Of a stretch of 56,080 nt of DNA, positions 910 through 43,446 are shown one piece after another; the stretch's first letter is position 1, and every line of letters starts with the position of its first letter. The position numbers and the translations under genes were made by a program. The notes below the pieces were generated by a model. That model saw only the letters and a program-made list of their open reading frames with translations, ran no database searches and was not told where the DNA came from. The DNA is from a virus (taxonomy: Duplodnaviria; Caudoviricetes): positions 1 through 56,080 of IMG/VR virus record IMGVR_UViG_3300037483_001430; one strand, written 5' to 3'.

Positions 910-964
910 GTGTAGGTGGTCCCCTCGTGCGCGAGGATGACGGGGATCGCGAGATCGAAGGTGC

Positions 965-23071: not shown

Positions 23072-23077
23072 GGACGC

Positions 23078-23110
23078 ATCGTGCGCCACGCGGGAGGGCG
23101 ACGGACGAAA
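23078..23110 (-). promoter_or_regulatory. Long-spacer promoter motif, leaderless (recombinase)
   Basis: TTTCGT-N21-CACGAT-N6-ATG. Confidence 0.5.
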
Positions 23111-23797: not shown

Positions 23798-24079
23798 TCA
23801 GAGCTTGGCGTTGACGTACTTGGCCAGGATCATCTTGGCGGCCGTCTGATACCCCACGCCCAGCTGCTCGCCACGCCGGCGGAGCTGCTCCTTCAGCCCG
23901 TCGCTGAGCAGGATTGTCGTTGGCCGCTGGGGACGGACGAGGACGCCGGTCCCGGCCGCCTTGATGTCGGCGCCGAGGTCGCGCTGCTCGAACTCCTGCA
24001 GGACCGGATCGTTCGTGCTGTCAGCGTTCTTCATCGTCCTTTTCGTGCCCTTCTTGCTACCCGTCGTGCGTCGCTGCAT
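23798..24079 (-). CDS. BrnA/CopG-like antitoxin
   Basis: C-terminal RHH (TTILLS...LGVGYQT). Overlaps the toxin's end. Confidence 0.75.
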   Translation of the reverse strand: MQRRTTGSKKGTKRTMKNADSTNDPVLQEFEQRDLGADIKAAGTGVLVRPQRPTTILLSDGLKEQLRRRGEQLGVGYQTAAKMILAKYVNAKL

Positions 24080-24389
24080 CGTATGCCTCCTTCTCATTCG
24101 TCCGCATAGCCCGGCAACTGATCGGCCGAAGCTGGTCGCCGCGCCGGGTGAAGATGAGGGCTGCGCGCCGCCCATCCATCGTGACGCCCAGAAGCAGCCA
24201 GCGCGGTTCATCGTGCGCGCGCCTGACGATCCGGCCCGCCAGGAAGACCGCCTGGCGGAACATCGACTCAACACCCATGACCGAGAACCCGTGCTTGTCG
24301 GAGCTCTTGGCGTCATTACCCGCATCCCATTGCAGCGCCGGCCCGTTCCCGACCCACTCTGCCATCTCAGGGTCGGCGGCGAGATTCAT
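24057..24389 (-). CDS. brnT: BrnT family toxin
   Basis: QWDAGN..K..KHG...EPRW.LLG...IFTRRG..LRPISCR. Confidence 0.85.
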   Translation of the reverse strand: MNLAADPEMAEWVGNGPALQWDAGNDAKSSDKHGFSVMGVESMFRQAVFLAGRIVRRAHDEPRWLLLGVTMDGRRAALIFTRRGDQLRPISCRAMRTNEKEAYDAATHDG

Positions 24390-26518: not shown

Positions 26519-27844
26519 TCACGCTGACGCGCCGAAGAGTGCCGCGGCAGCGCCATCCTCGATGGTGGAGAGATTCACGATCTCGTGACTCTCGTCCGAC
26601 CAGGGTTGCACCCAGTCCCGCGTCATCTGGATCGCGATCCCGACGATGCTCGTCTTGAGCGCCTTCGCTCGCTCGCGGATGGCGGGTGCCGGGTCAGGCT
26701 CGCTCCCGCCGTCGGTGACGAGCACCACGTCGGCCTTCCCGAGCGCCGTGCCGCGGTGCTGTTCGATGACGTCCAGGGCGCGCGTCAGCGCGCGGGCGAT
26801 GTCGGTGCCGCCACCGCACCCGACCATGAGGGCGTCGCGCGGGAGTTGCTCCGACGGCTTCACGACGGCCTCGAAGGTGACGTGGTAGTCGAAGCAGAGG
26901 ACCGCGAAGGGCCGCTTCTCGACCTGCGCCTGTTCGAGCAGGGCCAGGACGACCGCGGTGGCCCAGACGTCGCGCTCGCCGTCCATCGATCCCGACTTGT
27001 CGAGCGCGACGACCAGGGGCCCCTTGCCCTTGGGCTCGGTGCCGGTGAGCTGGTACTGCAGGGCCTGCCGTTCCATGAGATCGCGGATGAACGCCAGCCG
27101 CCTCGCCGGGTGCGTGAGCTTCGCGATCTCGGACGGCAGCAGACGCGCGATGTCGGCGCCCATCTCGATGTCCGCGATCTCGTCGGCGCCGTGCTTCACG
27201 CGCTCGCGCCGCTTGTTCGCGGCGATGCGCCGGAAGCGGCCGGCGAGCTCGAGGATCTTCTTCAGGCGCTGGTCGTTCTTGAGCCCGGCCACGACGCGGC
27301 GCACCTGGGCGGCGTTGAGCGCGACGGAGCCCGTCCCCGAGCCCGTGCCCGGCGCGAAGCCCACCGCCACGCCCTCGAGCGCGCGCATGGCGTCGCGCGT
27401 CTCATCGATCGCGGCGGAGGCCTTCTCGAGAGCCGGAATGAGCGCGCGGCGGAGCTGGTCGACAGCGCTCGGCGCCCCCGGCTTCTGCGGCTGCGGGCTG
27501 GCGTTCGGCTCTGTCTCAGACTCCTCCTGGGGGTTCACGGCGGCCGCGATCTTCTCGAGGGCGATGGACGAGGCGACCGCGTCGCCGCGACACTCGGCGG
27601 CGAGCCGCTCGAAGGCGGGCATCTGCGAGGCGGCCTCGTGGAACCCCTTGGCCCAGGCGGCGAGCCGCGCGTCCTGCCGCTTCGCCGGGAGCTCGTCGAC
27701 CTCGCCCCCCGAGTAGAGCCGGTCGAAGAGCTCGTCCTCGAACTTCGCGACCGGCCGGTCAGAGTCGCTGGCGCGCGGGAGCTCGCGCGCCTCGCGGTGC
27801 AGGTAGGTGTGCCATTTCGGGACGTCGTAGAGAATCCGCTTCAT
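26519..27844 (-). CDS. VWA-domain protein (ViaA/CoxE-like)
   Basis: MIDAS DKSGSM, GGGTD, VLVTDG. RLLPSE motif. Confidence 0.9.
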   Translation of the reverse strand: MKRILYDVPKWHTYLHREARELPRASDSDRPVAKFEDELFDRLYSGGEVDELPAKRQDARLAAWAKGFHEAASQMPAFERLAAECRGDAVASSIALEKIAAAVNPQEESETEPNASPQPQKPGAPSAVDQLRRALIPALEKASAAIDETRDAMRALEGVAVGFAPGTGSGTGSVALNAAQVRRVVAGLKNDQRLKKILELAGRFRRIAANKRRERVKHGADEIADIEMGADIARLLPSEIAKLTHPARRLAFIRDLMERQALQYQLTGTEPKGKGPLVVALDKSGSMDGERDVWATAVVLALLEQAQVEKRPFAVLCFDYHVTFEAVVKPSEQLPRDALMVGCGGGTDIARALTRALDVIEQHRGTALGKADVVLVTDGGSEPDPAPAIRERAKALKTSIVGIAIQMTRDWVQPWSDESHEIVNLSTIEDGAAAALFGASA

Positions 27845-27858
27845 GATTCGCCTCGGAG

Positions 27859-28125
27859 CTACGGACAAACGTTGACGAGGACGTACGCGGGCGCCGCGCC
27901 GGCCGCGGCGATGAGCGCCAGCACGTGCGCACGCGCGACCTTCTTCGCGTCGGCGTATGTGCTCGCCGGCGCGAACCACACCGGCATCGAGCCCGGGATC
28001 TCGAAAGCCCACGACCCGTAGCCTCGCGGCTCTTTCCCGTGGCTGAAGCTGAACTCGGTCGTCGAGAACTCGATCTTGGTCGTCATGTTCGTTCCCTCGC
28101 TCATCGTCGTGCTCGTCGTGTTCAT
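27859..28125 (-). CDS. Hypothetical protein (cassette gene, leaderless)
   Basis: Contains FSHGKEPRGYGSWAF. ATG 6 nt after the -10 box. Confidence 0.7.
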   Translation of the reverse strand: MNTTSTTMSEGTNMTTKIEFSTTEFSFSHGKEPRGYGSWAFEIPGSMPVWFAPASTYADAKKVARAHVLALIAAAGAAPAYVLVNVCP

Positions 28126-28289: not shown

Positions 28290-29510
<1,221 letters not shown>

Positions 29511-29516
29511 GGTTGG

Positions 29517-29546
29517 ACTATGCGCCGTGTACGGTTGCATTGTCAA
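29517..29546 (-). promoter_or_regulatory. Sigma-70 promoter with GCAACCGTAC box, leaderless (AAA gene)
   Basis: TTGACA-N18-CATAGT-N6-ATG. Confidence 0.8.
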
Positions 29547-29623
29547 GGGTATCGGCGCGCGCCGAACGAGGTGCACCAGGCGCACCCACTCCATCCATGT
29601 CGCACGGTTCAATACAACCGTAC

Positions 29624-29684: not shown

Positions 29685-30569
29685 ATGAACGCCACCCTGA
29701 CCAGCATCTCGCAGAGCCTCAACTCCAGCGGTCCCCACGTCGGCGACATCCTGTGGTGGAGCCTGTTCGACTCCCACGTCAGCGCCGAGTGGTTCGCTGG
29801 TGAGTGGAAGGCAGCCGGGCTGGACGGGTCGATTCTCGCGCAGCCGAAGACGCCGGCGCGCGCGTTGCGCGAGGCCGGGTTCGCGGCGGTCACCGGAGTG
29901 GACGGGCAGCTGTTCCGCTTCGCCGCCCAGACCGACGAAAGGACGATCTGGGCGCTCGTGCGCGAGGAGCGGAAGGGCGATGGCTCCGTCGAGTACCACC
30001 AGGAAGCGCAGATCGCCGTCGACCTGGCGGCCGGCACCTTCTCCAGCGACTGCGCGGCGCATCCCATCGTGCAGGACATCCGCGCACGCTACGACGCGCT
30101 CGTCGGAACGTACTCGAGCCGCGAGGTTCGCGCCTCGATCGTCCGCCTACTCGAGCGCAGCAGCGCCGTGTCGATCCGCGAGGCGGGCGGCGTCTACTGG
30201 ATCCCCGCTCCCTACGCTGAGACCGGACGCCGACTGAAGGCCGTCATCGACCAAGTCGGCTCGTCGGTCTTCTCCGTCCTTCCCGTGCACGAGACGAACA
30301 TCGGCAACGAGGCGCTCGGGAACGCCGCGCGCGGCTCGCTCGAGACCGAGATCGTGGAGCTCAAGGACGAGATCGCGAGGTTCAAGGCTGACCCGCCCAA
30401 GGCCGCCACCTTGGAGCGCCGCCTCGAAGCCTTCACCGCCCTGCAGGCGCGCGCGTCGCTGTACCGCGATCTCCTTTCCGTCGAGGTCTCCGACCTCGAG
30501 ACGAACCTCACCGAGCTCGCCGATTCGGTGAAGGCCATCATCGGCGGGCTCGAGAAGGCCGCCGCGTAG
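29685..30569 (+). CDS. DUF6744/DUF3150-like protein
   Basis: GDILWWSL ... SIREAGGVYWIP. Divergent from the AAA/VWA genes. Confidence 0.7.
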   Translation: MNATLTSISQSLNSSGPHVGDILWWSLFDSHVSAEWFAGEWKAAGLDGSILAQPKTPARALREAGFAAVTGVDGQLFRFAAQTDERTIWALVREERKGDGSVEYHQEAQIAVDLAAGTFSSDCAAHPIVQDIRARYDALVGTYSSREVRASIVRLLERSSAVSIREAGGVYWIPAPYAETGRRLKAVIDQVGSSVFSVLPVHETNIGNEALGNAARGSLETEIVELKDEIARFKADPPKAATLERRLEAFTALQARASLYRDLLSVEVSDLETNLTELADSVKAIIGGLEKAAA

Positions 30570-30632
30570 GTTCCACGCGCGGGCGGTGCTCGTCGAGAGC
30601 GCCTCCCGATTCGAGCGACAGGAGACACACCG

Positions 30633-30944
30633 ATGGCACCGATCTGCGACTTCTGCTCATCCGAAGCTGTGCACTGGCGATACCCGGCGCGGGACTTCGC
30701 TGCGCCTGGCTTGCTGGCGTTCTTCTCGAAGAGCGCTGGCGACTGGGCGGCGTGCGATGCCTGCCACGACCTCATCGAGAAGGACGAGCGCGCCGCGCTC
30801 GTGGAGCGCGTCTTCATCTCGGCGCCCCCCGATCTCGTCACGCCCTACGCGATCCGGTTCGTCCAGGATCTGCACGCGAGCTTCTACACCTGTCGGACGG
30901 GGCCGGCAGAGCCCATCTCGGCGCGCGTGCAGGTGACGTCATGA
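30633..30944 (+). CDS. Zn-binding hypothetical protein
   Basis: CDFC...WAACDAC. AGGAG SD. Confidence 0.65.
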   Translation: MAPICDFCSSEAVHWRYPARDFAAPGLLAFFSKSAGDWAACDACHDLIEKDERAALVERVFISAPPDLVTPYAIRFVQDLHASFYTCRTGPAEPISARVQVTS

Positions 30945-32023
30945 CACGCTCCGAGATGGCGGCGGAGCTCGAACGGCACTTCCCGACCACGCCCCACTCC
31001 GAGACGGTGTCAGCTCGGCTGCAGGCCAGATGGGATGCGGATCCGCACGATCCGATCTTCCGGTTCACATGGGCAGACGGTACGGTGGGGTACATGCCGC
31101 GCCCGGCGGACTCGGCCATCGGCTCGGATTGCCTCGCCTGGAGGAAGAAGATCCTGAATGGCGAACCCTTGTTCAAGGTGAAGGAGCCGCGCAACGCGAG
31201 CCCGAACTGGGGGCGCGTGCTCAAGCCGGTGCTTACCGTGTGGCGTCGACACCCGTCGACGTTCCACTTCGACGCCCTCGATCCCACGAAGAGGATCAGG
31301 AACCCCGGGACCGCCTACTGGGAACACGATTCCGAGCGCCAGAAGACGGTCCCGGTGCGCGTGCGGTGCCCGTCGTGCAATCGCCCGATCCGTCTCTCGC
31401 GGTGGTGGGAGCACGGGTGCGAGAAGGGGATTGTCACGAGCGACTGGTGCTTCGCGCCGTGGGCGGAGGCAACGGCGGGCGCAGCTGAGCCCGTGTATGA
31501 TGACGAGACGACCCCGACGACCATCGTTCCCGTGACGGCGACGACCGTTGACGAACCCGCCGAAACGACGCCGCCCACGCCGATCCCGCGTGAGTCTGCA
31601 GACCCGGTCGCCGAGACGGGGGCGCGCGACTGGATGACGCCCGGTAGAACATTCGGGAGCTACCGCACGCAGCAGGGCGAGCTCGTCACGATGTACCGCT
31701 GGCGGCAGCACGTGCGCTTCTACACCGACGGTGGACGCCAGATCGGGCCCGAGCAATCGAACGTAGTCCCCGGCGTGGCATACGCGATGGCGCAGGGCTG
31801 GGAGAGCGCGTCCAAGCCGCCACCGCCGTGCCCAGCGCCGCCAGTGCCACGAGTCGGGCGCGTCGGGAAACTCACGCCAGAACAGGCTTCCGAGCTGCGC
31901 CGGCGCGCGAACCGTGGCGAGAGCCCGCGAGCGCTCATGGCGGAGTTTGGCATCTCCTCGCGTGGCTACTTCTACAAGCTCAAGGCTGGCGTGGGTCGCG
32001 CTCGTTGGGCGGAGGTGGCCTGA
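30941..32023 (+). CDS. Mosaic protein with Zn knuckle and C-terminal HTH
   Basis: CPSC..HGC, PT-rich linker, KLTPEQ...LMAEFGIS. ATGA coupling. Confidence 0.6.
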   Translation: MTRSEMAAELERHFPTTPHSETVSARLQARWDADPHDPIFRFTWADGTVGYMPRPADSAIGSDCLAWRKKILNGEPLFKVKEPRNASPNWGRVLKPVLTVWRRHPSTFHFDALDPTKRIRNPGTAYWEHDSERQKTVPVRVRCPSCNRPIRLSRWWEHGCEKGIVTSDWCFAPWAEATAGAAEPVYDDETTPTTIVPVTATTVDEPAETTPPTPIPRESADPVAETGARDWMTPGRTFGSYRTQQGELVTMYRWRQHVRFYTDGGRQIGPEQSNVVPGVAYAMAQGWESASKPPPPCPAPPVPRVGRVGKLTPEQASELRRRANRGESPRALMAEFGISSRGYFYKLKAGVGRARWAEVA

Positions 32024-32511
32024 TGCTCGCCCTCACCGTGCAGCAGCCATGGGCTGACGCCATCGCGAGCGGCCTGAAGCCGGTCGAGAACCGAAAGTGG
32101 GCTCCGCGGATGGACGTCTACGGGCAGGATCTCGCCATCCACGCCGCCCGAGCCGTTTCCGCGGAGAGCAACGGTCACAGCCTCGCGCGCTACAGAAAGG
32201 TGGCTGGGCATGCGGCTCGGCCTATCGAAGACATGCCGCTCGCGGCGGTGGTCGCTGTGGTTAGGCTCGTCGGTGCGGTCAACGTCGAGTCGCGCCGGGT
32301 GCTTGGAAACCTCTCCGAGGCGAGGATCGCAGAGGTGCTGTCATCGCCCTGGACCTACGGCCGCTGGGCTCTGGTGCTCGACCATGTGCGTCGGCTCGCC
32401 ACGCCTGTCCCGTGCCGCGGAGCCCTCATGCTCTGGCGACTGCCGGTCGAGGTCGCCCGACAGGTATCGCATACAACCGTGGTAGACGCGCTGCAGGCAC
32501 GGGGGCTATGA
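32023..32511 (+). CDS. ASCH domain protein
   Basis: ALTVQQPWA.AI..G.K.VENR.W ... LAIHA ... PVPCRG.L.LW. Confidence 0.85.
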   Translation: MLALTVQQPWADAIASGLKPVENRKWAPRMDVYGQDLAIHAARAVSAESNGHSLARYRKVAGHAARPIEDMPLAAVVAVVRLVGAVNVESRRVLGNLSEARIAEVLSSPWTYGRWALVLDHVRRLATPVPCRGALMLWRLPVEVARQVSHTTVVDALQARGL

Positions 32512-32795
32512 TGGCGCTCATGGGACGCAAAGCCGCAGCGGCGAAGGCGAGCGTCGAGAACCCGAGGCGCGAACGGGGCGCCATGACGGCGGTGGTGCTC
32601 AGGGCCATCGGCCTGCTAGTGGCGAGCCCACGGCGCCCGCTCGATCTCATGGGCGAGCTCGACCTATCGCGTCGAAGCGTCGAGCGGCTGCTCCGCGGAA
32701 TCAAGGCCGCCGGGCTCGATCTCGAGGTGGAGCGTTCCGGCAACGAGGCTTACTACCGACTCTCGCGCGAGTCCGTCCGGAAGAAGCTGGCGTAG
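32508..32795 (+). CDS. Winged HTH protein
   Basis: LMGELDLSRRSVERLL...YYRL. Confidence 0.65.
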   Translation: MMALMGRKAAAAKASVENPRRERGAMTAVVLRAIGLLVASPRRPLDLMGELDLSRRSVERLLRGIKAAGLDLEVERSGNEAYYRLSRESVRKKLA

Positions 32796-32810
32796 CGGTA
32801 CACTCGCCGC

Positions 32811-33068
32811 ATGAGCACATCTTCTCCGACAGACGCTGTCGCCTGCCCACGCTGCGGGGCGGCGCCGGGCGAGACCTGCGCGTACGCGCTCCTCACGGCC
32901 GCGCTCAAGAAGGGCGACATGCCCACCGCACACGACCTGGAACGGGTGAACCGTGCGGGCCCGTCCCTGGCGCACCCGGAGCGCATGGAGGAGGCCCTGG
33001 CCCTGGTGGCGCTCGCGAGGCGGTTCGGGATCACGCAGGTGCAGCGGCTAGCGCCTGCCGGAAGCTAG
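32811..33068 (+). CDS. Zn-finger hypothetical protein
   Basis: VACPRCGAAPGETC...HPER. Confidence 0.6.
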   Translation: MSTSSPTDAVACPRCGAAPGETCAYALLTAALKKGDMPTAHDLERVNRAGPSLAHPERMEEALALVALARRFGITQVQRLAPAGS

Positions 33069-33161
33069 GAGCACAGCACCGCGTTGCGGACGCCAGGACC
33101 ATGACGGCCGCCGCGAGCAGCAAGCGGCGCTCCCATTCCCGCACGCGCTCACCGTAGGTCT

Positions 33162-33719
33162 TCACGCTGCCCGCCCCTCCTTGTCTTTCGGCATGAACGT
33201 CTCGTAGGTGGCGAGCCGATCTTCCTGGGCCGCTCGCCGTGGCGCGCCCTCCAGGATACCGGCGAGAGCGCGCCGGAGGGCGCGGAGTCCAGCCGGCACG
33301 AACCGCCGGGCGTAGGCGTCCCGCGGCTTCTCGTCGGGGTCGAGGACGACGACATCCTGCTCACAGACAGGGCCCGTGTCGAGCCCGTGGTCGCACCAGA
33401 ACCACGTCGCGGCCGAGACGTGCTCGCGGGCAGCAAGGGTGTGTCGGATGGCGTCCGGGCCGCGATGCCGTGGCAGTGCAGACGGGTGGAAGATGAGCGT
33501 CCCGAGCACCGGCGCGCCCCACTCCTCCGGCCCGATCTTGCGCGCGAGGAGGGGGGCGATCGCGACCATCGCCGATCGAGGCTCGTCGACGAGCCGGAAG
33601 CCGAGATCGAGCGCGAGCGACGCGCAGTCGGCGACGAACAACCGCGCCGCCGGCGGCGACCCGTCGCGCGCCAGGTACACGTAGACGCCATGCGCTAAGG
33701 GCAGCCTACTCGCCGACAT
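33162..33719 (-). CDS. Formyltransferase-family protein
   Basis: FHPSALPRHRGPDAI ... GLDTGPV. Confidence 0.85.
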   Translation of the reverse strand: MSASRLPLAHGVYVYLARDGSPPAARLFVADCASLALDLGFRLVDEPRSAMVAIAPLLARKIGPEEWGAPVLGTLIFHPSALPRHRGPDAIRHTLAAREHVSAATWFWCDHGLDTGPVCEQDVVVLDPDEKPRDAYARRFVPAGLRALRRALAGILEGAPRRAAQEDRLATYETFMPKDKEGRAA

Positions 33720-34830
33720 ACCGGAACCCCTGGACTGCGCGGAAGTGGCCCCCAAAGCCCGAGCCCATGAGCGAGCCCGACTTCGCCAGCGTCTGGACAG
33801 ACCTCCTCTTGTTGCTGCCGTGGAGGACGGCGGAGAGCTGGCGCCACTTCTTGTCGCGGCGCAGGGCGGAGGACAGCCCAGGATGGCTCGTGTGGAATAG
33901 CGTCGTCACCTTGCGCCCCGGCATCCGCGCCCCAGCCGCGCCCTCCAGTTGCAGCTGCGAGACGGCGTTGAGGCAGCGCATCCCGACGCCGGCGCCCTGC
34001 CATTCGGGCATGACGACCATCCGGCAGCCGCGCGCCTCGACGGCGCAGCCCTTGTTCTTCGTGCCGATCCCGATGTGAAAGACGAGCTCGTCGTCGACCG
34101 TGCCGACGTAGCAGGACGCCGCCACCATCAGCGGCAGCTTCAGATAGTGATGCGGCTCAAAGAGCGGCCAGTAACGCCAGTCCGTCTTCCACAGCTGAAC
34201 GTCGAACCGAGGCCGGCGATGAAGCCCCCTCCCGCGGGTGAACTCCCGCTTCTGCGTGTCGAAGACCCAGTCCGGCTCTACCCAATCGATGATGTCGTAG
34301 TGGCAGGAGAGCAGCACCGCCTTTCCCTTGGTCCGCCGCCACGACTTCTGGAAGGCTAGCGCGCCGATCTTCGCGATCTGGCGGTCCACCACCGAAGTGA
34401 ACTCGTCGATCACGATCCGGTCCGGTTCCTCGGCGATGATGCGCGCCAGGTCGGCGCGGAACTTTTCACCGTTGGAAAGGACTGGATATGGCCGCAGCCA
34501 TGCTGGCACGTCGCCGAGACCGACCGCGGCGAGCGCGCCGGTAACGGCGTCGAACCCGCCGCCTGGCGCTATCGCTTCCACGATGGGCGTTTCCGAGGGC
34601 CACCCCTGGGGCTCGTAGAACCCCTCGCCCTGGAAGATGCGTCGGCCGACGCTGGTCTTCCCCGAGCCCGAGGGCCCCACTACGAGCCCGATGCTCCAGT
34701 CGCCGTCGTCAATGGCCAGGTCCGCCACCAGATCAAAGTTGCACCCCTTCTCTGCGTTGAAGAGCGACTTCACCCGGGCGGCGCGGTAGGAGTCGAAATC
34801 GGAGCAGCGGTTGTGTACCTCGATACGCAT
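33706..34830 (-). CDS. Soluble ABC ATPase-GNAT acyltransferase fusion
   Basis: GPSGSGKT, LSNGEKFR, IDEF, SCH, followed by HHYL and RMVVMPEWQGAGVG (acyl-CoA motif A). Confidence 0.88.
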   Translation of the reverse strand: MRIEVHNRCSDFDSYRAARVKSLFNAEKGCNFDLVADLAIDDGDWSIGLVVGPSGSGKTSVGRRIFQGEGFYEPQGWPSETPIVEAIAPGGGFDAVTGALAAVGLGDVPAWLRPYPVLSNGEKFRADLARIIAEEPDRIVIDEFTSVVDRQIAKIGALAFQKSWRRTKGKAVLLSCHYDIIDWVEPDWVFDTQKREFTRGRGLHRRPRFDVQLWKTDWRYWPLFEPHHYLKLPLMVAASCYVGTVDDELVFHIGIGTKNKGCAVEARGCRMVVMPEWQGAGVGMRCLNAVSQLQLEGAAGARMPGRKVTTLFHTSHPGLSSALRRDKKWRQLSAVLHGSNKRRSVQTLAKSGSLMGSGFGGHFRAVQGFRYVGE

Positions 34831-34840
34831 GAAGGCTCCG

Positions 34841-35464
34841 CTAGGTCGTGACGACCTTGCAAACGAGACCCTCGCCGCGGAGCCTCTCGTAGACCTGCTG
34901 CTGCTCAGCCTCGTCCTTGCACATGACGACCACCCCGAATTGCTCGGAGTAGGTGTTCGCGCGTTCTCGCTCCCGTGCGAGCGCGGCTTCGTCATCGGGA
35001 GGGGCCGCCTCCTTCGGCGCCATGTCGTAGAGCATCGCCTGTAGCGCGGGGTCCTCCGTCGCGACTTGTCCGAGCAGCTCCTGGAGGACGCCTTCGTTCC
35101 GCTCGGCGAGCTCGGTGATGGGGTCGAGGATGGCCAGCGCGAGGCGCTCCTCTTCCACGGGCAGCTCGACGAAGTCGACCGGGATCGCCGAGAGGCCTTG
35201 CCGGCGAGCCTCCTCGACACGCGCGTGGCCGTCGAGGATGTGGCCGGTCGTCCGGTTCACGATGACGCCCTTCAGCCACCCGAGCTCCCTCATGGAGCCG
35301 CGCAGGGCGTCGACCTGCTCTTCAGGGTGCGTGCGGAAGTTGAGCGGGTTCGCGAGCAGCTGTTCCGGCGGGACGTCCTCGTGCCCGACGATGCGGCTGC
35401 GCAACGCGCCGGCGGCTTCAGCGGGGACGGCGACCAGTTCGGGAGGCTTCCGCTTCTTCGGCAT
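34841..35464 (-). CDS. ParB/Srx N-terminal domain protein with small C-terminal domain
   Basis: NPLNFRTH...ILDGHARV. C-terminal QFGVVVMCKDEAEQ. Confidence 0.85.
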   Translation of the reverse strand: MPKKRKPPELVAVPAEAAGALRSRIVGHEDVPPEQLLANPLNFRTHPEEQVDALRGSMRELGWLKGVIVNRTTGHILDGHARVEEARRQGLSAIPVDFVELPVEEERLALAILDPITELAERNEGVLQELLGQVATEDPALQAMLYDMAPKEAAPPDDEAALARERERANTYSEQFGVVVMCKDEAEQQQVYERLRGEGLVCKVVTT

Positions 35465-35470
35465 GCCTAC

Positions 35471-35504
35471 AGGCTACGACAGGAGGGCGCCTGGGCAGGC
35501 GAAA
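35471..35504 (-). promoter_or_regulatory. Long-spacer promoter motif, leaderless (ParB operon)
   Basis: TTTCGC-N22-TAGCCT-N6-ATG. Confidence 0.55.
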
Positions 35505-35512
35505 GCCGCCAG

Positions 35513-36850
35513 CTAGTCGGAGAGGAGGTCCTCGTCGCTCGGGTAGGGGGGATCGTCCGCGGGGGCGGCTTGCTTGCCGGCGAGGCCGGGGCCGGTTTCA
35601 CAAGCTGCACCAGCTGGCTTCGCAAGCGCCTCGGAACGGGCGTCTCCGTCGCGCTGGACGTCTTCCGTGCGGGCTGGACGGTAGTCGGGCGCGATGGGCA
35701 TCGCGTACCGCGTGGCGCCAGCCTCGTAGCTCATCACCACGGCGCCGTCCTTCAGGGCGAGCTGTTCCCGGACGCGCTCCCGGATCTCCTCCGGCGAGGT
35801 GATGCGCGCGCCCTCGGGCAGCTTCCCGTTCCAGAACACGGGGATCATGGAGAGGCCGCAGTCCGTGCAGGTCGTGAGACCGTCCTCGAGCGCGGTCTTC
35901 CGGCGGGGGTGATCGCAGCGGATGCTGTTCCTCGCGTTCTGGTTTCGCACCTCGGCGCGGTACTTCTCCCGTTCGTCGATGAGCCGGCGCAGGACCTCGA
36001 CCGCTCCCTCGCCCATCCCGTCAGGGCCTGGCCCTACGTGATCCTCGAGGATCGCCACGAGCTCGCGGCCGAGCTTGGCGTCCCGAGCGTCGTCTGTCGC
36101 GGCGTACGCCTGCTGGACCAGCTTCGCCACCCTCGTCGCGGTCTCGCAGGCCTCGATCTGGGCGGCTCTTGCATCGAACACCTGCGACGACGGCTTCGGG
36201 TCCCAGCACATCGACGCTGCGCCGGCGAGCTCATGGAGCGGCCCCACCACGAGCATCTCCAGGACGGCGCGCTCCGAGGGGGCATCTTCGACGGGGGAGT
36301 CGGGGCGAAACGGGTTCTCCGTCTGAAGCAAGACCGGCGGATGCGCCCGTCCCAAGACCCACAGCCAGATGGGCCCGCCGCGGGCGATGCGCGCACGGTC
36401 TGCGGCACCGAGGTCCCAGCACGAGATGAACCCCTCGCCGGTGTCGTGCACATCGAGCGCGCTGCATTCGTCCTCGGTCATATCCTTCGGCCGTTGGAAT
36501 GTCCGGTTCGACGCCGGGAACGGCACGGCCTTCATGCCGTCTTTCCGCTGGGCGTGCAGATCTGATCTCTCTTCGAGCTCCTTCGTGAGGACGGAGACGC
36601 GCTCGCAGATCCGCTCGACGACGATGTGGGCGACTTCGGACGCTGCGCGTTGCGCCGCCGCCTGTGCCCTGACGGCATCGAACACCCCGCCAGGTTTCGG
36701 GGCCCAGCATACGGACGCCTCGTCAGCGAGCTGGTAGAGCGCACCGGAGATGGCCGTCTCGAGCAGGGCGCGCTCCCGGCTCTGTGCGACTGCCTCCGGC
36801 ACCTCGTTCGTCGGGGAGGGTCCTGCTCCTGCGCCGTTTCGTTCCGTCAT
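35513..36850 (-). CDS. Mosaic hypothetical protein with internal duplication
   Basis: Two copies of L..LA..AS.CW.PKP...VFD in a 445 aa ORF. Confidence 0.7.
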   Translation of the reverse strand: MTERNGAGAGPSPTNEVPEAVAQSRERALLETAISGALYQLADEASVCWAPKPGGVFDAVRAQAAAQRAASEVAHIVVERICERVSVLTKELEERSDLHAQRKDGMKAVPFPASNRTFQRPKDMTEDECSALDVHDTGEGFISCWDLGAADRARIARGGPIWLWVLGRAHPPVLLQTENPFRPDSPVEDAPSERAVLEMLVVGPLHELAGAASMCWDPKPSSQVFDARAAQIEACETATRVAKLVQQAYAATDDARDAKLGRELVAILEDHVGPGPDGMGEGAVEVLRRLIDEREKYRAEVRNQNARNSIRCDHPRRKTALEDGLTTCTDCGLSMIPVFWNGKLPEGARITSPEEIRERVREQLALKDGAVVMSYEAGATRYAMPIAPDYRPARTEDVQRDGDARSEALAKPAGAACETGPGLAGKQAAPADDPPYPSDEDLLSD

Positions 36851-36870
36851 GTGCCTTGCCTCCGGCGCGC

Positions 36871-36903
36871 ATCCTACTTCGCCGCGCGCGAGGACTGCCG
36901 AAA
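36871..36903 (-). promoter_or_regulatory. Long-spacer promoter motif
   Basis: TTTCGG-N21-TAGGAT. Confidence 0.55.
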
Positions 36904-36998
36904 TGGGTCGGCGCCCGGCGCGGCGGACAGAAGAAGGCCCCGGAGAAGGATCCCCGGGGCCCGGCGTCCAGAGCGGGGAGAGCTATGAACCCCCTATC

Positions 36999-37148
36999 TC
37001 ACGCCGTGGCCGGCGCGGCCGTCGCCGACGTGCTCCTCTTGGTCTTCGGTTTCGCGCGGTTCGCCTTCCGTCCGATGCCAGGCTTGTGCGCCGTCGCCTT
37101 CGCGATCGGCTTGCGCCCTCGCTTCGGGTGCTTCCCCGGGGCCGCCAT
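36999..37148 (-). CDS. 49-aa K/R/A/P-rich basic peptide (not in the ORF track)
   Basis: MAAPGKHPKRGRKPIAKATAHKPGIGRKANRAKPKTKRSTSATAAPATA. The ATG directly follows the TAA of the upstream gene, in frame. Confidence 0.5.
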   Translation of the reverse strand: MAAPGKHPKRGRKPIAKATAHKPGIGRKANRAKPKTKRSTSATAAPATA

Positions 37149-37532
37149 TTACGCCGCCGCCTGGCGCTGCGTGGTGGCAGGCACGGGGGCCGGCGCGGGG
37201 TGCTTCAGGGCCTTGCGCGCGGCGGCCGTGAGGATGGCCGGGAGCGCCTTGCCGACCTCGAAGCGGGCGTCCGCGCCGAAGCGCTCGACGATCTTCTTCT
37301 TCGTGTCGAGGCCGCCCGTCATCTGGATGACCCAGGTCGGAACGCGGCGCGCCTTGGAGTCAGCGATCCAGACGTTCTCTGTCCCCTTGGCCCGGCGCCG
37401 AGCTCGCTTTGCCCTGGTCGTCACGACCGCAGGCGGTACGAGCTGCACAGCCTGCGTGCGTGTGATCATCTGACCGGCGAGGGCGAAGAGCCGTCGCCTG
37501 GCGTCCGAAATGATTCCGTCGAATGTGTCCAT
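37149..37532 (-). CDS. Basic histone-like / nucleoid-associated-like protein
   Basis: WIADSKARRVPTWVI..TG.LDTKKKIVERFG resembles a domain recalled from K/A-rich myxobacterial proteins. Confidence 0.55.
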   Translation of the reverse strand: MDTFDGIISDARRRLFALAGQMITRTQAVQLVPPAVVTTRAKRARRRAKGTENVWIADSKARRVPTWVIQMTGGLDTKKKIVERFGADARFEVGKALPAILTAAARKALKHPAPAPVPATTQRQAAA

Positions 37533-37588
37533 ACGGTTCCCCTTTGTACGGTGCAAAGTGCAATTTGTTACCCGTACCGCGCATCCTG

Positions 37589-37801
37589 CTACTCCGCGCG
37601 AAGGACCGCAAGATAGCGCCGCGTCCTCGAGCGCTCCCGCCTGCTCGTGTAGAGGTACTCCCGGCGCGCGAGCTGCGCGGCGCAGCGCTCGCACATCGTG
37701 GCGCTCCTTCCGCCACCGAGGACGACCCAAAGAATGGACGTCGAGTCCTGGCACCCGAAGACACAGGTGCGCCGCCGGTCGACACCATCATGGCTCGGCA
37801 T
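37589..37801 (-). CDS. Small Zn-finger protein
   Basis: CVFGC...CERC. Confidence 0.45.
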   Translation of the reverse strand: MPSHDGVDRRRTCVFGCQDSTSILWVVLGGGRSATMCERCAAQLARREYLYTSRRERSRTRRYLAVLRAE

Positions 37802-38189
37802 TGGCCTCCCCCTCCGGGTAGCTCGGGGCCTCTCGCGCTCGCAAGCTCGTGAGGAGCCCCACCATCGTCGCGCGCTGCTCCCGCACGATATCAGCTCCGG
37901 TGATACCCCGCCTGTCGAGCATGACCGCGAGGAGATCGAGCTCGGCCGCGGCCCGCACCAGCGCCGCCTGGGCTGTGCTCCGGAACTCCTCCCAGCTCGC
38001 CGAACCGCCCGGCCGCGGCGTGCGGGGAAGAGTCATCCCGAACCGCGGGAAGGCGCAGCGCCCGTGCGTCTCCATCCACGTCTCGGCGAGCTCGAGCTCG
38101 TCGTAGGTCGCCCGCCGGGGCACGAGATAGGTTGCGCTGCAGCCCGCGCACTCGAGCAGCATCACCTCGGCTGAGCGGATGGGGGCCAT
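37788..38189 (-). CDS. Hypothetical protein
   Basis: CAGC...HGRC. Abuts the Ku stop codon. Confidence 0.55.
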   Translation of the reverse strand: MAPIRSAEVMLLECAGCSATYLVPRRATYDELELAETWMETHGRCAFPRFGMTLPRTPRPGGSASWEEFRSTAQAALVRAAAELDLLAVMLDRRGITGADIVREQRATMVGLLTSLRAREAPSYPEGEANAEP

Positions 38190-39062
38190 TCACCTGGTCG
38201 CGCGCGGTTTCTTCTTGGGGAGGGGCTCGGGCTTGGGTGGGCTTTCGGGCTTCTTCGGCGGGGAGGCAGCGACGCTCGCCTTGAGCGCTGCGAGGAGGTC
38301 GACGATGACCGGCCTGCCGTTCACTGGCGCAGCGACGATCTCGCCGCCGCGCACCTTCGCCGCAATAGCCATGACGGTCGCTGCGTACCGCTCGTCGGGG
38401 TAGGCGCCGGGGCGGAACTCGGCGACGGACCGCTCTTCGGCGAGCCGGAGCCCGAGCTGGAGCGCCGGCTCGTTGGCCGCGACCGGGGAGAGCTCAATCT
38501 CGCCCACGGGCCGGACCTCTTCCGCCCGGCGCAGCTCCTGGAGCACGAGCCGGCCATCTGCCGCGCGCAGACCGACGAAGAGATCACGGCCGCGGGTCGC
38601 CCATCGGCAGAGCGCGATCTTTCCCCCGAGGCGCAGCACGTCGGCGAGCCAGGCGTACCGGCGCGCCGCCTCGTCGGCCTCGGGCAGGCGCACCGGGCCG
38701 CTCTCGACGTCGGGGCCGAGGTAGTGGGGCCGCGCCCAGTGCAGGGGATCGATCTCCGCCGCGTCGACGAGCTCGGCGACCTCGATGGCGGGATCGGGCT
38801 TGGGCTCGACGGCCTCGAGGTCCTCGGGGGTGAAGACAACGAACCTGTCCTTCCCGACCTCGTAGCCCTTCACGATCGCGTCCTCCTCGAGGAGCGTGTT
38901 GTCGGCGGGGCAGAGGTAGCGTTGCTTGGGTCGGGAGCCGCAGTCCTTGTGCAGGAGGCGGAACTCGATCTTGGGCGGGTCGCGCGTCGCAGGGTAGAGG
39001 CGGACAGGGATCGACACCTGGCCGAACCAGATCACCGCCTTGCCGGTACACCGGGGAGCCAT
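38190..39062 (-). CDS. ku: Ku DNA end-binding protein
   Basis: I.FGQVSIPVRLYPAT...IVKGYEV.KDRFV...VDLLAALKASV. Confidence 0.92.
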   Translation of the reverse strand: MAPRCTGKAVIWFGQVSIPVRLYPATRDPPKIEFRLLHKDCGSRPKQRYLCPADNTLLEEDAIVKGYEVGKDRFVVFTPEDLEAVEPKPDPAIEVAELVDAAEIDPLHWARPHYLGPDVESGPVRLPEADEAARRYAWLADVLRLGGKIALCRWATRGRDLFVGLRAADGRLVLQELRRAEEVRPVGEIELSPVAANEPALQLGLRLAEERSVAEFRPGAYPDERYAATVMAIAAKVRGGEIVAAPVNGRPVIVDLLAALKASVAASPPKKPESPPKPEPLPKKKPRATR

Positions 39063-39132
39063 GACACCCAGTATAGGGCCCTCCCCGGACGTAGACCGAG
39101 GGCGTGCAACCTGGGGGTTACGGCCCGGAGGG

Positions 39133-39155
39133 GTGTAAAGCTGCGTGTAAAGCTG
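39133..39155 (+). repeat. Tandem GTGTAAAGCTG x2 upstream of ku
   Basis: 11-bp direct repeats at a 12-bp period. TATACT -10 box at 39070..39075 on the minus strand. Confidence 0.6.
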
Positions 39156-39243
39156 GTGCCAAAGGCCTCGGAGAGCTGCGCCGCCGTCGCGCTGGGCGTC
39201 TACCGTGCGGGCTGCGCGGCATGGGGGCGCGTCACCATCCAGC

Positions 39244-39987
39244 TCATGGCCGCCCCTCCTCACGCATGGACGGCCCCGGCAGGTTCACCCAGCGACCTCC
39301 CGTCTTCAGCCGTTCCTCGAGCCGGTCGAGGCCTCCCTCGCGGGCGAGATAGCGCTCCCGGAAGTCGGTCGCGGTGAGGTTCGTCGCGATGACGGTCTTC
39401 CGCTCTCGGCGAAAGCGGCTGTTCAAGACCGAGTAGAGGTTCGCGTCGTAGCTCGTATTGCCCTGCTCGGCGCCGAGCTCGTCGAGCGCGAGGATCGGCG
39501 CGGCGGCCATGTCCTCCCAGACGAGGCGGTCGAACGTCGAAAGCTGCACGAGCTCTTGCGCCTCGAAGAACCTCCCGCCGTTCGTCGCCACCGCCCAGGC
39601 GAGCGCGAAGGTCTTGCCGCGCCCCTTCGGTCCGGCGAGCGTGAGGAAACGGGACCGGCCGCATGGCTCGGCGAGGAAGGCGCGGGTGGCCGCCAGGGCG
39701 CCCGTATCTTCGGGTGCGTCGAGAGCTCCCCAGGTGGCTTCCGGCACGCGCTGGCGTTGAAACGAGAGGCGCCGCTTGAGCCGTTGCTCATGGACGACGA
39801 ATGCTTCTACGTCGGCCGCGAGATCCGCGAGCTTCTCCCGGAAGACCGGGTCCCGTTCCCGCTTCCGCACGCGGTCCATGATGGCTTTCAGCCTGTCGCC
39901 TTCGGCGCGGCCCTCGATCTCGGCGAGACGGGCCCGGACCTCGGCGGGCGTGATGGTGCCTTGTTCGCTCATGCCTTGCTCGCTCAT
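39244..39987 (-). CDS. DnaC/IstB-like ATPase (helicase loader)
   Basis: GPKGRGKT, LALDELGAE, TVIATNL. Confidence 0.88.
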   Translation of the reverse strand: MSEQGMSEQGTITPAEVRARLAEIEGRAEGDRLKAIMDRVRKRERDPVFREKLADLAADVEAFVVHEQRLKRRLSFQRQRVPEATWGALDAPEDTGALAATRAFLAEPCGRSRFLTLAGPKGRGKTFALAWAVATNGGRFFEAQELVQLSTFDRLVWEDMAAAPILALDELGAEQGNTSYDANLYSVLNSRFRRERKTVIATNLTATDFRERYLAREGGLDRLEERLKTGGRWVNLPGPSMREEGRP

Positions 39988-41928: not shown

Positions 41929-43446
41929 ATGGCTCCCGAATACCCTAGCACGCCGCCCCTCGGTTTCACGGACGCCTGGATCCGGGACCTGCCCGTCCCA
42001 GAGGAGCAGCGTTACGAGCGCTTCGACCGCGGCCTCTGCGTCCGCGTGGAGCAGTCGGGCTCCAAGGCGTTCCGCTGGTACTACCAGGCCGACGACGGGC
42101 AAGGCGGGCGGCAGAAGCGTTCGGTGGTGCTCGGACCGTGGGCCCATCCGAGCAGCAAGCCGGCCGGCTACCTTGAGGTCGCGGATGCGCGCTCGCTCCT
42201 CGACCGCGCGAAGCAGGCGCACAAGGCTGGGAACCTCGCCGAGTTCGAGGCTGGGCTCGGGCATGGCAAGTCGCGTGTGCTTGGAGGCGGCGGGAAGACG
42301 GTCAAGGAACTCGCCGAGGAGTTCTATACGCTGCGCATCCTCCCCAAGCGCAAGGCCACGCCACAAGAGGTCCGGCGCACGCTCGACAACGACATCTTGC
42401 CTGCGATCGGCGCCAAGCCGTTGCGTGCCGTCAGGGCCGAGCACTGCCGCGACATCGTGCGCGCGGTGGTGCAGCGGGACTCCCCTTCTCAGGCGGGCAA
42501 GGTCTTCGCCCACATGGACTTCTTGTTCCGCTGGGCTCGGGGTTGCGGCGAGGACCTCCCTGTGAACCCGATGGAGATGCTCGACCCGGATGCGCTCGGC
42601 GTCGTGAATAACGAGCGCGATCGATTCCTGACCGAGGACGAGATTCCGCTCTACTGGCATGGCGTCGAGAGGCGCCCGAAGGACGAGAAGCTCGAGCCGG
42701 GAATGGAGCCGTGCGCCTTCCCCCGCTGCGGGCGCGCCGCTCGCGCCAAGACGTACTGCTTCGGCCACTATCGGCAGATGACGCGCGGGCGCGAGCTCTC
42801 CCCGCTCGAAGGGATCTCCCGCACGGTGCAGATCGGGCTCCGCATCATGCTCCTCATCCCGGAGCGTACGGCCCAACTGCTCAAGGGCGAATGGACCGAG
42901 ATGGACTTCGACGAGGCGCTCTGGACCGTGCCGATAGCCCATCAGAAGCTCAACCCGCGTTCGAAGAAGAAGTCGCGCGATCGCCGTGTCCCGCTCACGC
43001 CGCGCGTGATTGAGCTCTTCCGGGAGCTGCAAAACTTCGCCGGCGGCTCGCGCTTCATCATGGCGAGCGACGATTCCGAGACGGGCAGGCTCAACGACAA
43101 GGCGCTCATCCAGGCGCTCACGAGTCTGACGGCGACGGAGCGGCTGAAGGGCAGAAAGAAGATCCCGGTCAAACCTGTCCTGGCTCTCCCTGGTGGGCAT
43201 CTCACCGTGCACGATCTCCGCCACACGTTCCGAACGCTCGCCGTCGAGAAGCTGGGTCTGTTGCCCATGATCGCCGAACAATGCCTCGCGCACAGCGAGG
43301 GCGCCATGGCGGGCCGGTACAATCACTACGACTACCTGCGCGAGCGGCGCGAGGCGCTCGAGCGCTGGACGGAGTACGTCTACCGGCTCGTCGAGCCCAT
43401 GAGCACGAACGTGGCCTTCCTGCCTGGGCGGGCAGAGCGCGGGTAG
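41929..43446 (+). CDS. int: Tyrosine integrase with arm-binding domain and inserted CCCH Zn motif
   Basis: GLCVRV..SGSK.F arm domain, HDLRH, LAH, RYN. Adjacent to attP. Confidence 0.92.
   Translation: MAPEYPSTPPLGFTDAWIRDLPVPEEQRYERFDRGLCVRVEQSGSKAFRWYYQADDGQGGRQKRSVVLGPWAHPSSKPAGYLEVADARSLLDRAKQAHKAGNLAEFEAGLGHGKSRVLGGGGKTVKELAEEFYTLRILPKRKATPQEVRRTLDNDILPAIGAKPLRAVRAEHCRDIVRAVVQRDSPSQAGKVFAHMDFLFRWARGCGEDLPVNPMEMLDPDALGVVNNERDRFLTEDEIPLYWHGVERRPKDEKLEPGMEPCAFPRCGRAARAKTYCFGHYRQMTRGRELSPLEGISRTVQIGLRIMLLIPERTAQLLKGEWTEMDFDEALWTVPIAHQKLNPRSKKKSRDRRVPLTPRVIELFRELQNFAGGSRFIMASDDSETGRLNDKALIQALTSLTATERLKGRKKIPVKPVLALPGGHLTVHDLRHTFRTLAVEKLGLLPMIAEQCLAHSEGAMAGRYNHYDYLRERREALERWTEYVYRLVEPMSTNVAFLPGRAERG

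Follow-up and report, generated by a model that had tools for sequence, protein, structure and literature searches.

A conserved tailed-phage module of a ParB-linked adaptor, an ABC-GNAT fusion and a formyltransferase-fold protein as a candidate acyltransferase system

Here, we describe a three-gene module in the window, by which we mean the whole 56,080-nucleotide stretch that was analyzed, namely the IMG/VR virus record IMGVR_UViG_3300037483_001430. The module lies on the minus strand between positions 35464 and 33162 and encodes a protein with a ParB/Srx fold, an ABC-type ATPase fused to a GNAT acyltransferase domain (ABC-GNAT), and a short formyltransferase-fold protein (FT). Judged from its sequences, the module is most aptly seen as a GNAT acyltransferase that is linked to ParB, depends on ATP, and has its own donor-making enzyme. 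Parts of this arrangement recall several described systems.

Phage Mu keeps mom at the end of its late operon, after the tail-fiber genes, and the module occupies the same place in Mu-like phages. The mom product is a late-expressed GNAT-fold enzyme that acylates an exocyclic base amine of double-stranded DNA (dsDNA) (PMC13219725; PMC7261163), the base being deoxyadenosine and the glycyl group coming from Gly-tRNA, as described in PMC13219725. In contrast to the module, Mom is a single protein with a helix-turn-helix (HTH)-like insertion needed for its activity and works without an ATPase, a ParB protein, or a helper enzyme. The GNAT of the module keeps a coenzyme A (CoA) box, is fused to an ABC ATPase, and is accompanied by an adaptor or ParB protein and a putative donor enzyme. 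Pfam matched the GNAT with generic GNAT families only. At the thresholds used, neither Pfam nor PHROG gave a match to a Mom-specific family, and the VIA and Foldseek matches listed included no Mom structure, settings at which a distant kinship could still exist. A second GNAT system is that of TmcA and NAT10, ATP-dependent N4-acetyltransferases of RNA cytidine that acylate an aromatic exocyclic base amine through a CoA thioester (PMC13219725). In these enzymes, an NTPase domain is fused to the GNAT. Pfam families specific to TmcA were absent from ABC-GNAT, and ABC_tran and AAA families were found instead. TmcA has a helicase-like NTPase in place of an ABC one, together with a tRNA-binding domain.

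The ParB protein has its own parallels. Phage fusions of ParB-N to an N6_N4 methyltransferase (PF01555; phrog_498) carry the same head subtype and occupy the same slot just upstream of terminase. In these fusions, the S-adenosylmethionine-dependent methyltransferase is attached directly to the head, whereas the head of the module leads to an adaptor, with ABC-GNAT and FT as separate proteins. In the 5mYOX system, a thymine dioxygenase that acts after replication depends on a ParB-like phage activator in which no DNA-binding domain is obvious (PMC13229309). The 5mYOX chemistry differs, being an Fe/2-oxoglutarate oxidation of T without an ATPase or acyl donor, and the 5mYOX ParB protein has a C-terminal dimerization domain where the module ParB protein has a 35-residue adaptor. 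Phage proteins in which the ParB-CTPase fold is joined to a methyltransferase or to a domain without known function are reported in a survey of this fold (PMC12704722), in the searched passages of which no ABC, GNAT, or formyl partner is mentioned. The DRaCALA binding assay was used in that study. The best sequence relative of FT is the N-terminal domain of 10-formyltetrahydrofolate dehydrogenase (FDH, ALDH1L1), to which a domain of HypX is also related. FDH passes the formyl group of 10-formyltetrahydrofolate to the 4'-phosphopantetheine thiol on the arm of its carrier domain (PMC8748788), and the FDH-like domain of HypX has been proposed, from its structure, to pass it to CoA and so make formyl-CoA (PMC6802093). 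The phage FT is the catalytic domain alone, without the carrier, aldehyde dehydrogenase, or crotonase domains of FDH and HypX. To our knowledge, there is no precedent for a GNAT that transfers a formyl group.

The three proteins and their conservation

The features of the module are as follows.
35464..34841, minus strand, ParB gene, 207 aa
35015..35392, minus strand, ParB-N (ParB/Srx, "ParB-CTPase") domain, residues ~25-150, with the G79-H-A-R82 box (PHROG, alignment, Foldseek)
34844..34957, minus strand, C-terminal adaptor domain, residues ~170-207, strand-helix-strand (phrog_28816, E 3e-11; AlphaFold2)
34830..33706, minus strand, ABC-GNAT gene, 374 aa
34216..34830, minus strand, ABC-type ATPase domain, residues 1-205 (conserved motifs, fold matches)
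33709..34215, minus strand, GNAT acyltransferase domain, residues 206-374, isoelectric point 10.2 (CoA box, fold matches)
33162..33719, minus strand, short formyltransferase-fold protein FT, 185 aa (Pfam Formyl_trans_N)

A prior reading of the window made from its letters alone (the sequence-only reading) had called three tightly packed genes of these kinds here, and they were indeed found in this place: ABC-GNAT starts 10 nt past the ParB stop codon, preceded by GGAG, and the FT gene overlaps the ABC-GNAT gene by 14 nt.

The 207-aa ParB protein is recognized by the PHROG families for ParB and for ParB-headed methyltransferases (E 4e-22 to 1e-19) and scores below threshold against Pfam ParB_N (18.5 bits; cut-off 26.3). 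Its AlphaFold2 (AF2) model, with an overall predicted local distance difference test (pLDDT) score of 80.7, was closest in Foldseek to the CTP/CDP-bound ParB structure 7bm8 (E 2e-7, template modeling score 0.46-0.51), and further matches included 6sdk, 7bnk, Noc, PadC, KorB, and sulfiredoxin. The phosphate-binding G-x-x-R box (box II) is present, with G79-H-A-R82 aligning to G-E-R-R of Caulobacter ParB; across 27 module ParB proteins, G79 is invariant and H80 and R82 are nearly so. Beyond ParB-N, there are helices only, then a disordered (poorly predicted) linker, and then the adaptor of ~35 residues. No HTH DNA-binding domain was found in the protein by Pfam or in the AF2 model, and no ParA family was found in Pfam scans of the open reading frames (ORFs) of the window. 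The HTH domain, C-terminal dimerization domain, and ParA partner that mark a partition-type ParB are all missing here.

The adaptor unit is modeled confidently, with a pLDDT of 91-97 over residues 181-207, and corresponds to phrog_28816, a family of 54-residue proteins. Its motif can be written as Y.EQ[YF]GV[IV]V.C.DE..Q..V[YF]..L...G..CKVV. The adaptor occurs in two settings, either as the tail of a ParB-N protein or as a standalone protein of 42-62 aa, and it is also found in single-chain fusions and in distant phages. The conserved adaptor Cys was considered as an acyl carrier and rejected, because P0149 and the Porphyromonas, LE4, and P335 phages have Val, Phe, or Ser there. The annotation "acr candidate" is attached to the adaptor protein of Porphyromonas phages.

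ABC-GNAT is covered over its full length by phrog_11143 (E 9e-143), a family with no assigned function. In the window protein, the Pfam families ABC_tran and Acetyltransf_7 are below threshold; in relatives, GNAT families are above it. An alignment of 83 relatives, down to ~30% identity, shows that the catalytic motifs of both domains are kept. In the ABC domain, S54, G55, G57, and K58 of the Walker A motif GPSGSGKS are invariant and G52 is found in at least 90%, and the LSNGE signature (L118-S119-x-G121), the Walker B residues D142-E143, and the H-loop residue H177 are conserved. In the GNAT domain, Q278-G-A-G281-V-G fits the CoA box Q/R-x-x-G-x-G/A, with Q278 and G279 invariant and G281 in at least 90%; R270 and P275 are also invariant. 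The GNAT part is strongly basic, with a net charge of at least +5 in 82 of the 83 relatives (median +14), and the ABC part is nearly neutral.

The AF2 model of ABC-GNAT is of high quality (pLDDT 90.9, predicted template modeling score 0.87). A solved structure spanning both domains was not found, and a Foldseek search with the whole model returned ABC domains only. The ABC domain resembles the nucleotide-binding domains of transporters, the A2 component of methyl-coenzyme M reductase, ABCE1, and PhnK at Z ~13-15 (Foldseek E 1e-8). Residues 209-374 are closest to the GNAT 1y9k (Z 15.1, root-mean-square deviation 2.9, 133 aligned), followed by RimI (5isv, Z 14.3) and Naa50 (6yzz, Z 13.6). That the ATPase has no membrane partner nearby, as had been noted from the sequence, was borne out: no permease was found by Pfam among the 52 ORFs of the window, nor among the recurring neighbors at 80 related loci described below. 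A complex prediction of ABC-GNAT with FT was uninformative either way (score 0.00, mark 0.32). In two relatives (P0228 and P0259), the ABC-GNAT gene is split by inteins with Hint and LAGLIDADG domains. Inteins occur mostly in highly conserved phage genes of DNA metabolism.

To follow the gene neighborhood, we used the best 80 of 238 confirmed IMG/VR matches, some of which are near-duplicates. In a recount based on hidden Markov models, loci were counted as having room when at least 150 nt were available upstream for the adaptor or at least 700 nt downstream for FT. Among loci with room, 72 of 74 have the adaptor immediately upstream of ABC-GNAT, 63 of 69 carry FT downstream, and 56 of 63 show both. 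The gene upstream codes for the adaptor alone (52-62 aa) or for ParB-N with the adaptor (~180-200 aa); by tblastn, ParB-N was found in 28 of 58 loci with room, probably an undercount. When the 757 ORFs of the 80 loci were clustered, only the trio and the terminase and portal genes recurred. Moreover, ParB-N, adaptor, ABC, and GNAT occur as natural single-chain fusions of 569-623 aa (P0149, P0221, P0225, and P0252). The trio is a conserved phage module and not a chance neighborhood. None of the 80 loci has flanking genes in common with the window, so a direct "allelic replacement" by a ParB-methylase is not demonstrable in this set.

The same gene order is seen in GenBank records of Gordonia phages (genes 1-3, then terminase), Lactococcus P335, and Leptospira LE4, and an adaptor-only module follows the tail-fiber genes at the end of the late operon in the Mu-like phages Burkholderia phiE255 and Pseudomonas Komp_PAO1_1 and in Porphyromonas phages. 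ABC-GNAT itself is widespread. At E <= 0.001, it was matched by 7,724 of 8,000 scored candidates, with 119 relatives listed at 65-76% identity, and by 3,074 representatives of the library clustered at 50% identity. At least 595 confirmed ABC-GNAT places were found in species-representative bacterial genomes, and the top 80 of these (53-75% identity) span at least 11 phyla by record title: Gemmatimonadota, Planctomycetota, Pseudomonadota, Acidobacteriota, Verrucomicrobiota, Desulfobacterota, Chloroflexota, Bacteroidota, Bacillota, Actinomycetota, and Campylobacterota. Such conservation is unusual for a phage accessory gene. In NCBIfam, PADLOC, and the protein atlas, the only named families that matched were generic ABC, GNAT, and FT families (in PADLOC, also the ParB-methylase head). 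No paper describing the module was found by text searches aimed at it or at related phage DNA modification; an older survey of DNA modification may mention such neighborhoods.

The third-gene slot and the acyl donor

FT matches Pfam Formyl_trans_N (PF00551) at 42 bits, against a cut-off of 26.1. Among sequences in the PDB, the window protein is closest to the N-terminal hydrolase domain of FDH (1s3i, E 2.4e-19), with Fmt at 3e-8, and for the longer and commoner FT subtype (that of L051), too, FDH is the best match, along the entire protein (E 1.8e-21; Fmt 5e-13). For both subtypes, the FDH domain beats Fmt/PurN by 6 to 11 orders of magnitude; HypX was not among the PDB sequence matches of either protein at the thresholds used. 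His78, P79, S80, Asp114, and G116 are invariant in 33 module FTs, within the motifs H-P-S-L-P..G and D.G. PurN, Fmt, and ArnA carry a catalytic Asn two residues ahead of the His (N-x-H). This position is Ile in the window FT and in FDH, and Gly, Ile, or Ala in all 47 aligned module FTs. Judged by this residue in the alignment, FT falls outside the PurN/Fmt type of amine formyltransferases. In the Gordonia phage Axumite, the FT gene (gene 3; L001, 1805-2452) is labeled "tRNA-methyltransferase" in GenBank and yet matches Formyl_trans_N at E 1e-8; the label is probably a naming slip from Met-tRNA formyltransferase.

A comparison with more distant relatives suggests what the third gene may be for. 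The Rhodococcus/Gordonia phage Jace (gp85-88) has an ABC-GNAT with 36% identity to that of the window, and with this protein as the query a sister-clade set of 42 loci was obtained. There, the slot after ABC-GNAT holds an aspartate decarboxylase (PanD; Pfam E 1e-28 to 1e-33), and next to it lies a gene for a ~223-aa protein with similarity to CoA-transferase family III in its N-terminal half (CoA_transf_3, E 3e-4 to 2e-13). Among the 42 sister loci, tblastn detects PanD in 16, the CoA-transferase-like gene in 20, and FT in one; of the 80 loci plus the window, 69 have FT and none has PanD or the CoA-transferase-like gene. The two cassettes also separate in a quick maximum-likelihood tree of 103 ABC-GNAT sequences, in which kin share labels and for which the careful search is unfinished. 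All 58 FT-linked rows fall in one clade (Shimodaira-Hasegawa-like approximate likelihood ratio test, SH-aLRT, 100), all 16 PanD/CoA-transferase rows fall in another (SH-aLRT 96), and a third clade of 12 has no recognized helper. One locus (L098, 4001-7261) has PanD and the CoA-transferase-like gene between two ABC-GNAT paralogues. In L116 (4259-5170) of the helper-less clade, a D12-class adenine DNA methyltransferase gene follows ABC-GNAT; in L089 (Aeromonas phage PX29; 4742-5989), the second gene downstream has a weak N6_Mtase match (E 5e-4); and other members of this clade adjoin a Cpn10-like gene and a family B DNA polymerase.

Because the two cassettes are mutually exclusive and one of them is based on CoA thioesters, the slot would appear to supply the acyl donor of the GNAT and not a second, independent modification. 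The sequence-only reading had instead taken the GNAT and FT as parallel modifiers, adding acetyl (+42) and formyl (+28) groups, respectively; the comparative data favor one pathway in which FT feeds the GNAT with its donor. A dedicated helper also points to an unusual donor, since acetyl-CoA, being abundant, would need none. With the FDH and HypX precedents in mind, we tentatively name formyl-CoA as the donor in FT-linked modules, a proposal built on sequence kinship and analogy that is somewhat less likely than not to hold.

The target of the module and competing explanations

Several lines of evidence bear on DNA as the target. When 100 longer homologues of the ParB protein were inspected, 96 proved to be fusions of ParB-N with the N6_N4 DNA methyltransferase domain PF01555, and the head of the window protein is 57-68% identical to the heads of such fusions. 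On this comparison, one targeting head is swapped between a DNA methylase and an adaptor that leads to ABC-GNAT. The two kinds of loci also keep similar company: in at least 25 of 50 module loci, the start of a TerL homologue is no more than 3.5 kb downstream, and for ParB-methylase loci the same holds within 3 kb in at least 29 of 69 (lower bounds, from 12 TerL queries), with three distinct terminase families involved. The basic GNAT domain fits a nucleic-acid substrate. Because of the methylase-type ParB head, the terminase-side slot, the basic GNAT, and the precedents of Mom and 5mYOX, we consider DNA the likeliest target, with the balance of these sequence-based arguments tipping slightly in its favor.

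Late expression of the module is weakly suggested by a promoter-like motif.
35496..35504, minus strand, TTTCGCCTG, 32 nt ahead of the ParB start, a TTTCGCCKG copy (four in all; motif scan)

The four copies in the window (1214, 15158, 21135, and 35496) are all on the minus strand and outside mapped ORFs, and lie 32 to 95 nt upstream of the lysin, capsid, small-terminase, and ParB genes. TTTCGCCKG is a candidate late promoter or operator element, and a sigma-70 region 4 protein encoded at 21294-21869 could be the factor that reads these sites. A consensus scan of 32500-39800 found no sigma-70 promoter. The core TTTCGCC also occurs ~145 nt upstream of the Ku gene, at 39408-39414. Sharing of this motif with terminase and capsid genes had been claimed from the sequence; the placement of the copies was confirmed and is suggestive of shared regulation, but the statistics are weak and the flanks poor, as detailed below.

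Together, these observations lead us to propose a late-expressed module that N-acylates nucleic acid, most likely phage dsDNA, with formyl-CoA as the donor. We advance this combined proposal, drawn from sequence and analogy, as plausible and somewhat more apt to fail than to hold. In the proposed mechanism, phage DNA would be modified after replication and before packaging, which would blunt host nucleases. The ParB-N head, being of the DNA-methyltransferase subtype, would take the machine to DNA and load onto it, and the adaptor would dock the head onto ABC-GNAT, a physical link that the natural single-chain fusions demonstrate. The ABC domain would dimerize on ATP, with binding and hydrolysis clamping or opening the substrate for the basic GNAT; by analogy with TmcA and with soluble ABC modules that drive enzyme complexes, we infer a role in ATP-gated substrate handling. 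The GNAT would then move the acyl group from a CoA thioester to an amine of the target. The third gene would make the unusual donor rather than modify the target itself, a step suggested by comparative genomics and enzymological precedent. Here, an FDH/HypX-like FT would move formyl from 10-formyltetrahydrofolate to the thiol of CoA, giving formyl-CoA and an N-formyl mark (+28 Da); in the sister clade, PanD and the CoA-transferase-III-like protein would yield beta-alanyl-CoA and a mark of +71 Da. The broadest form of this proposal, a pan-bacterial set of phage "acyl-DNA writers" in which a ParB-loaded, ATP-gated ABC-GNAT is combined with a swappable donor cassette that sets the mark (formyl or beta-alanyl), is rather doubtful at this stage. 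The late, ATP-driven acylating machine of the sequence-only reading has gained from the synteny, the single-chain fusions, and the methyltransferase-type ParB head, whereas DNA as its target is still an inference.

A number of observations weigh against the proposal. Many modules do without the DNA-linked ParB head. The ABC part is similar to the domains of transporters, ABCF, and ABCE and not to DNA-binding ABC ATPases, and the nearest solved GNAT folds are generic small GNATs, including protein N-terminal acetyltransferases (RimI, Naa50, and NatA). The window FT belongs to a divergent, N-terminally shortened subtype that is only 19-34% identical to other module FTs, and in this phage the module sits ~12 kb upstream of terminase in the direction of transcription, whereas many relatives adjoin terminase. 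As for the motif, 3 of 100 shuffles reach four copies of TTTCGCCKG, the 7-mer core is not enriched (10 found, 8.8 expected), and the flanks of the copies align poorly. An N-formyl group on an aromatic exocyclic amine is readily hydrolyzed (N6-formyladenosine lasts hours), so a durable formyl mark in the virion is questionable. On the side of the sister clade, the CoA-transferase-like proteins are truncated (~223 aa against a profile of 366 positions) with weak Pfam scores, and a PDB sequence search with one gave no match. Furthermore, the GNAT-fold protein PanM activates PanD (PMC3398536), and the neighborhood of PanD and a GNAT could therefore mean something else.

The substrate need not be DNA. 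A basic GNAT suits any nucleic acid, and ABC-GNAT might acylate tRNA, aminoacyl-tRNA, or a ribosome-bound substrate, in the manner of TmcA (with ATP and acetyl-CoA) or of GNAT toxins (with aminoacyl-tRNA), and so reprogram protein synthesis at a late stage of infection. The layout of an ATPase joined to a GNAT recalls TmcA, which is discussed together with tRNA-directed GNATs in PMC13219725; the ribosome-binding proteins ABCF1, EttA, and ExpZ are among the best PDB sequence matches of the ABC part; ABCE1 reaches Z 13.8 (VIA); and the FT fold is common to Met-tRNA formyltransferase. However, at E 5e-6 the ABCF matches are weak and do not surpass those to transporter domains, a tRNA-binding domain is lacking, and FT, at 185 aa, has no C-terminal OB domain as in Fmt and is far nearer FDH. 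The ParB head is shared with DNA methyltransferases and not with RNA enzymes, and the positions beside terminase and, in Mu-like phages, after the tail-fiber genes suit DNA modifiers, so that we regard an RNA target as unlikely. We likewise see little probability in a protein target, in which a phage or host protein (e.g., a DNA-bound or packaging protein) would be formylated or acylated at its N-terminus or at a lysine, with ParB as a scaffold. N-terminal acetyltransferase folds are indeed near (RimI 5isv, Z 14.3; Naa50, NatA, Ard1, and NatC, Z 13.0 to 13.6), formyl and acetyl are classical marks of protein N-termini, and ParB-N is dispensable in about half of the modules. Nevertheless, likeness of GNAT fold does not predict the substrate, a point that the Mom authors make about their enzyme in PMC13219725, and the strong positive charge is unusual for a protein acetyltransferase. 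No recurring fourth gene offers itself as a substrate; the adaptor could serve, but its Cys is not universal.

The module might also act on small molecules, either remodeling folate and CoA pools through an FDH-like 10-formyltetrahydrofolate hydrolase, PanD, and CoA-transferase, or acylating a small amine (for instance a polyamine, nucleotide, or immune signal of the host), in an auxiliary metabolic or anti-defense role. The N-terminal domain of FDH on its own is a hydrolase domain (PMC6802093), PanD and CoA-transferase are metabolic enzyme families, PanD is regulated by the GNAT-fold PanM (PMC3398536), FT falls in the PHROG category "moron, auxiliary metabolic gene and host takeover", and the adaptor of Porphyromonas phages bears the "acr candidate" label. 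This explanation leaves the obligatory adaptor, the methylase-type ParB-N fusion, the ABC ATPase, and the basic GNAT surface unaccounted for, and PADLOC matches only generic ABC domains and the ParB-methylase head; we hold it to be improbable. Finally, no DNA chemistry would be involved if ParB and the ABC ATPase formed a partition, condensation, or packaging-initiation device in which the GNAT and FT are degenerate. DNA partition is a role of ParB proteins, terminase genes often come directly after the module, and in the Gordonia phage Axumite no small terminase is annotated between the two. The GNAT Q-x-x-G-x-G and the FT His/Asp are, however, kept throughout the family, several loci and the window have a TerS, a TerS candidate, or a TerS-sized ORF of their own, and the ParB protein has no HTH DNA-binding domain, which makes such a device very improbable.

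If the acylation of phage DNA that we propose is true, an accessory module that is among the most conserved and most widespread in tailed phages writes CoA-thioester acyl marks that lie outside the current catalogue of phage DNA modifications, and its N-formyl or N-beta-alanyl bases would be DNA modifications undescribed so far. It would add a second GNAT route to acyl-DNA alongside Mom, give formyl-CoA a new biological role as a group donor, and provide a concrete job for many orphan ParB-like proteins of phages. Such acyl marks would affect restriction, sequencing chemistry, base calling, and the behavior of prophage DNA in cloning. A modular system of targeting head, ATP-gated transferase, and exchangeable donor enzyme could possibly be useful for site-directed DNA labeling. 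Even with a target other than DNA, this is a large and sharply delimited family with no known function that is directly testable in cultured phages.

Genome context of the module

The record is a complete 56,080-bp virus (CheckV 100% complete; IMG/VR class linear) with a G+C content of 65-70% from sediment metagenomes (six runs). From a Pfam scan of its 52 ORFs and a PHROG scan, it is a temperate tailed phage. The features outside the module are as follows.
403-1119, minus strand, lysin (Pfam/PHROG)
10547-12061, minus strand, tail tube (Pfam/PHROG)
14055-15116, minus strand, capsid gene (Pfam/PHROG)
16008-17084, minus strand, MuF (Pfam/PHROG)
17336-18970, minus strand, portal (Pfam/PHROG)
18980-20479, minus strand, TerL (Pfam/PHROG)
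20480-21073, minus strand, TerS candidate (PHROG)
21294-21869, minus strand, sigma-70 region 4 protein, just upstream of the TerS candidate (Pfam)
22088-23089, minus strand, tyrosine integrase, one of two in the genome (Pfam)
24057-24389, minus strand, BrnT-family toxin gene (Pfam)
26519-28012, minus strand, VWA protein (Pfam)
28290-29612, minus strand, MoxR-type AAA ATPase (bpMoxR, AAA_5) (Pfam)
29685-30569, plus strand, DUF6744 gene, divergent from the MoxR/VWA pair (Pfam)
29685-33068, plus strand, gene block preceding the module region
31828-32511, plus strand, ASCH-domain protein, convergent with the module and ~650 nt from its end (Pfam)
38190-39263, minus strand, Ku homologue, at the head of the gene string that ends in the module (Pfam Ku, E 3e-32; phrog_4873)
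41929-43446, plus strand, second tyrosine integrase (Pfam)
53456-54583, ERF recombinase (Pfam)

On the minus strand around 33162-39263, the order is the three module genes, three ORFs without assigned function, and Ku. The only terminator-like hairpin in 32500-39800 is at 36935-36962 (minus strand), upstream of a 445-aa ORF; because it is the sole hairpin and sits there, this ORF may be cotranscribed with the three module genes. The module was also considered as a replacement for TerS and this idea was rejected, as L062 has Terminase_2 (Pfam), L060, L068, and L076 have a small ORF in the TerS position, P335 has an annotated TerS, and the window has its own TerS candidate.

The ASCH-domain protein was considered as a fourth component. 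It is encoded near the module in the window, and an ASCH gene lies directly downstream of ABC-GNAT in L122 (5177-5611), but there was no recurrence in the 80 loci and the candidate was dropped. A 2026 preprint describes ASCH proteins as erasers of N4-acetylcytidine, and by analogy the ASCH protein of the window may be a reader or eraser of acylated bases. The MoxR-VWA pair lies inside a phage here, and such pairs are usually cellular.

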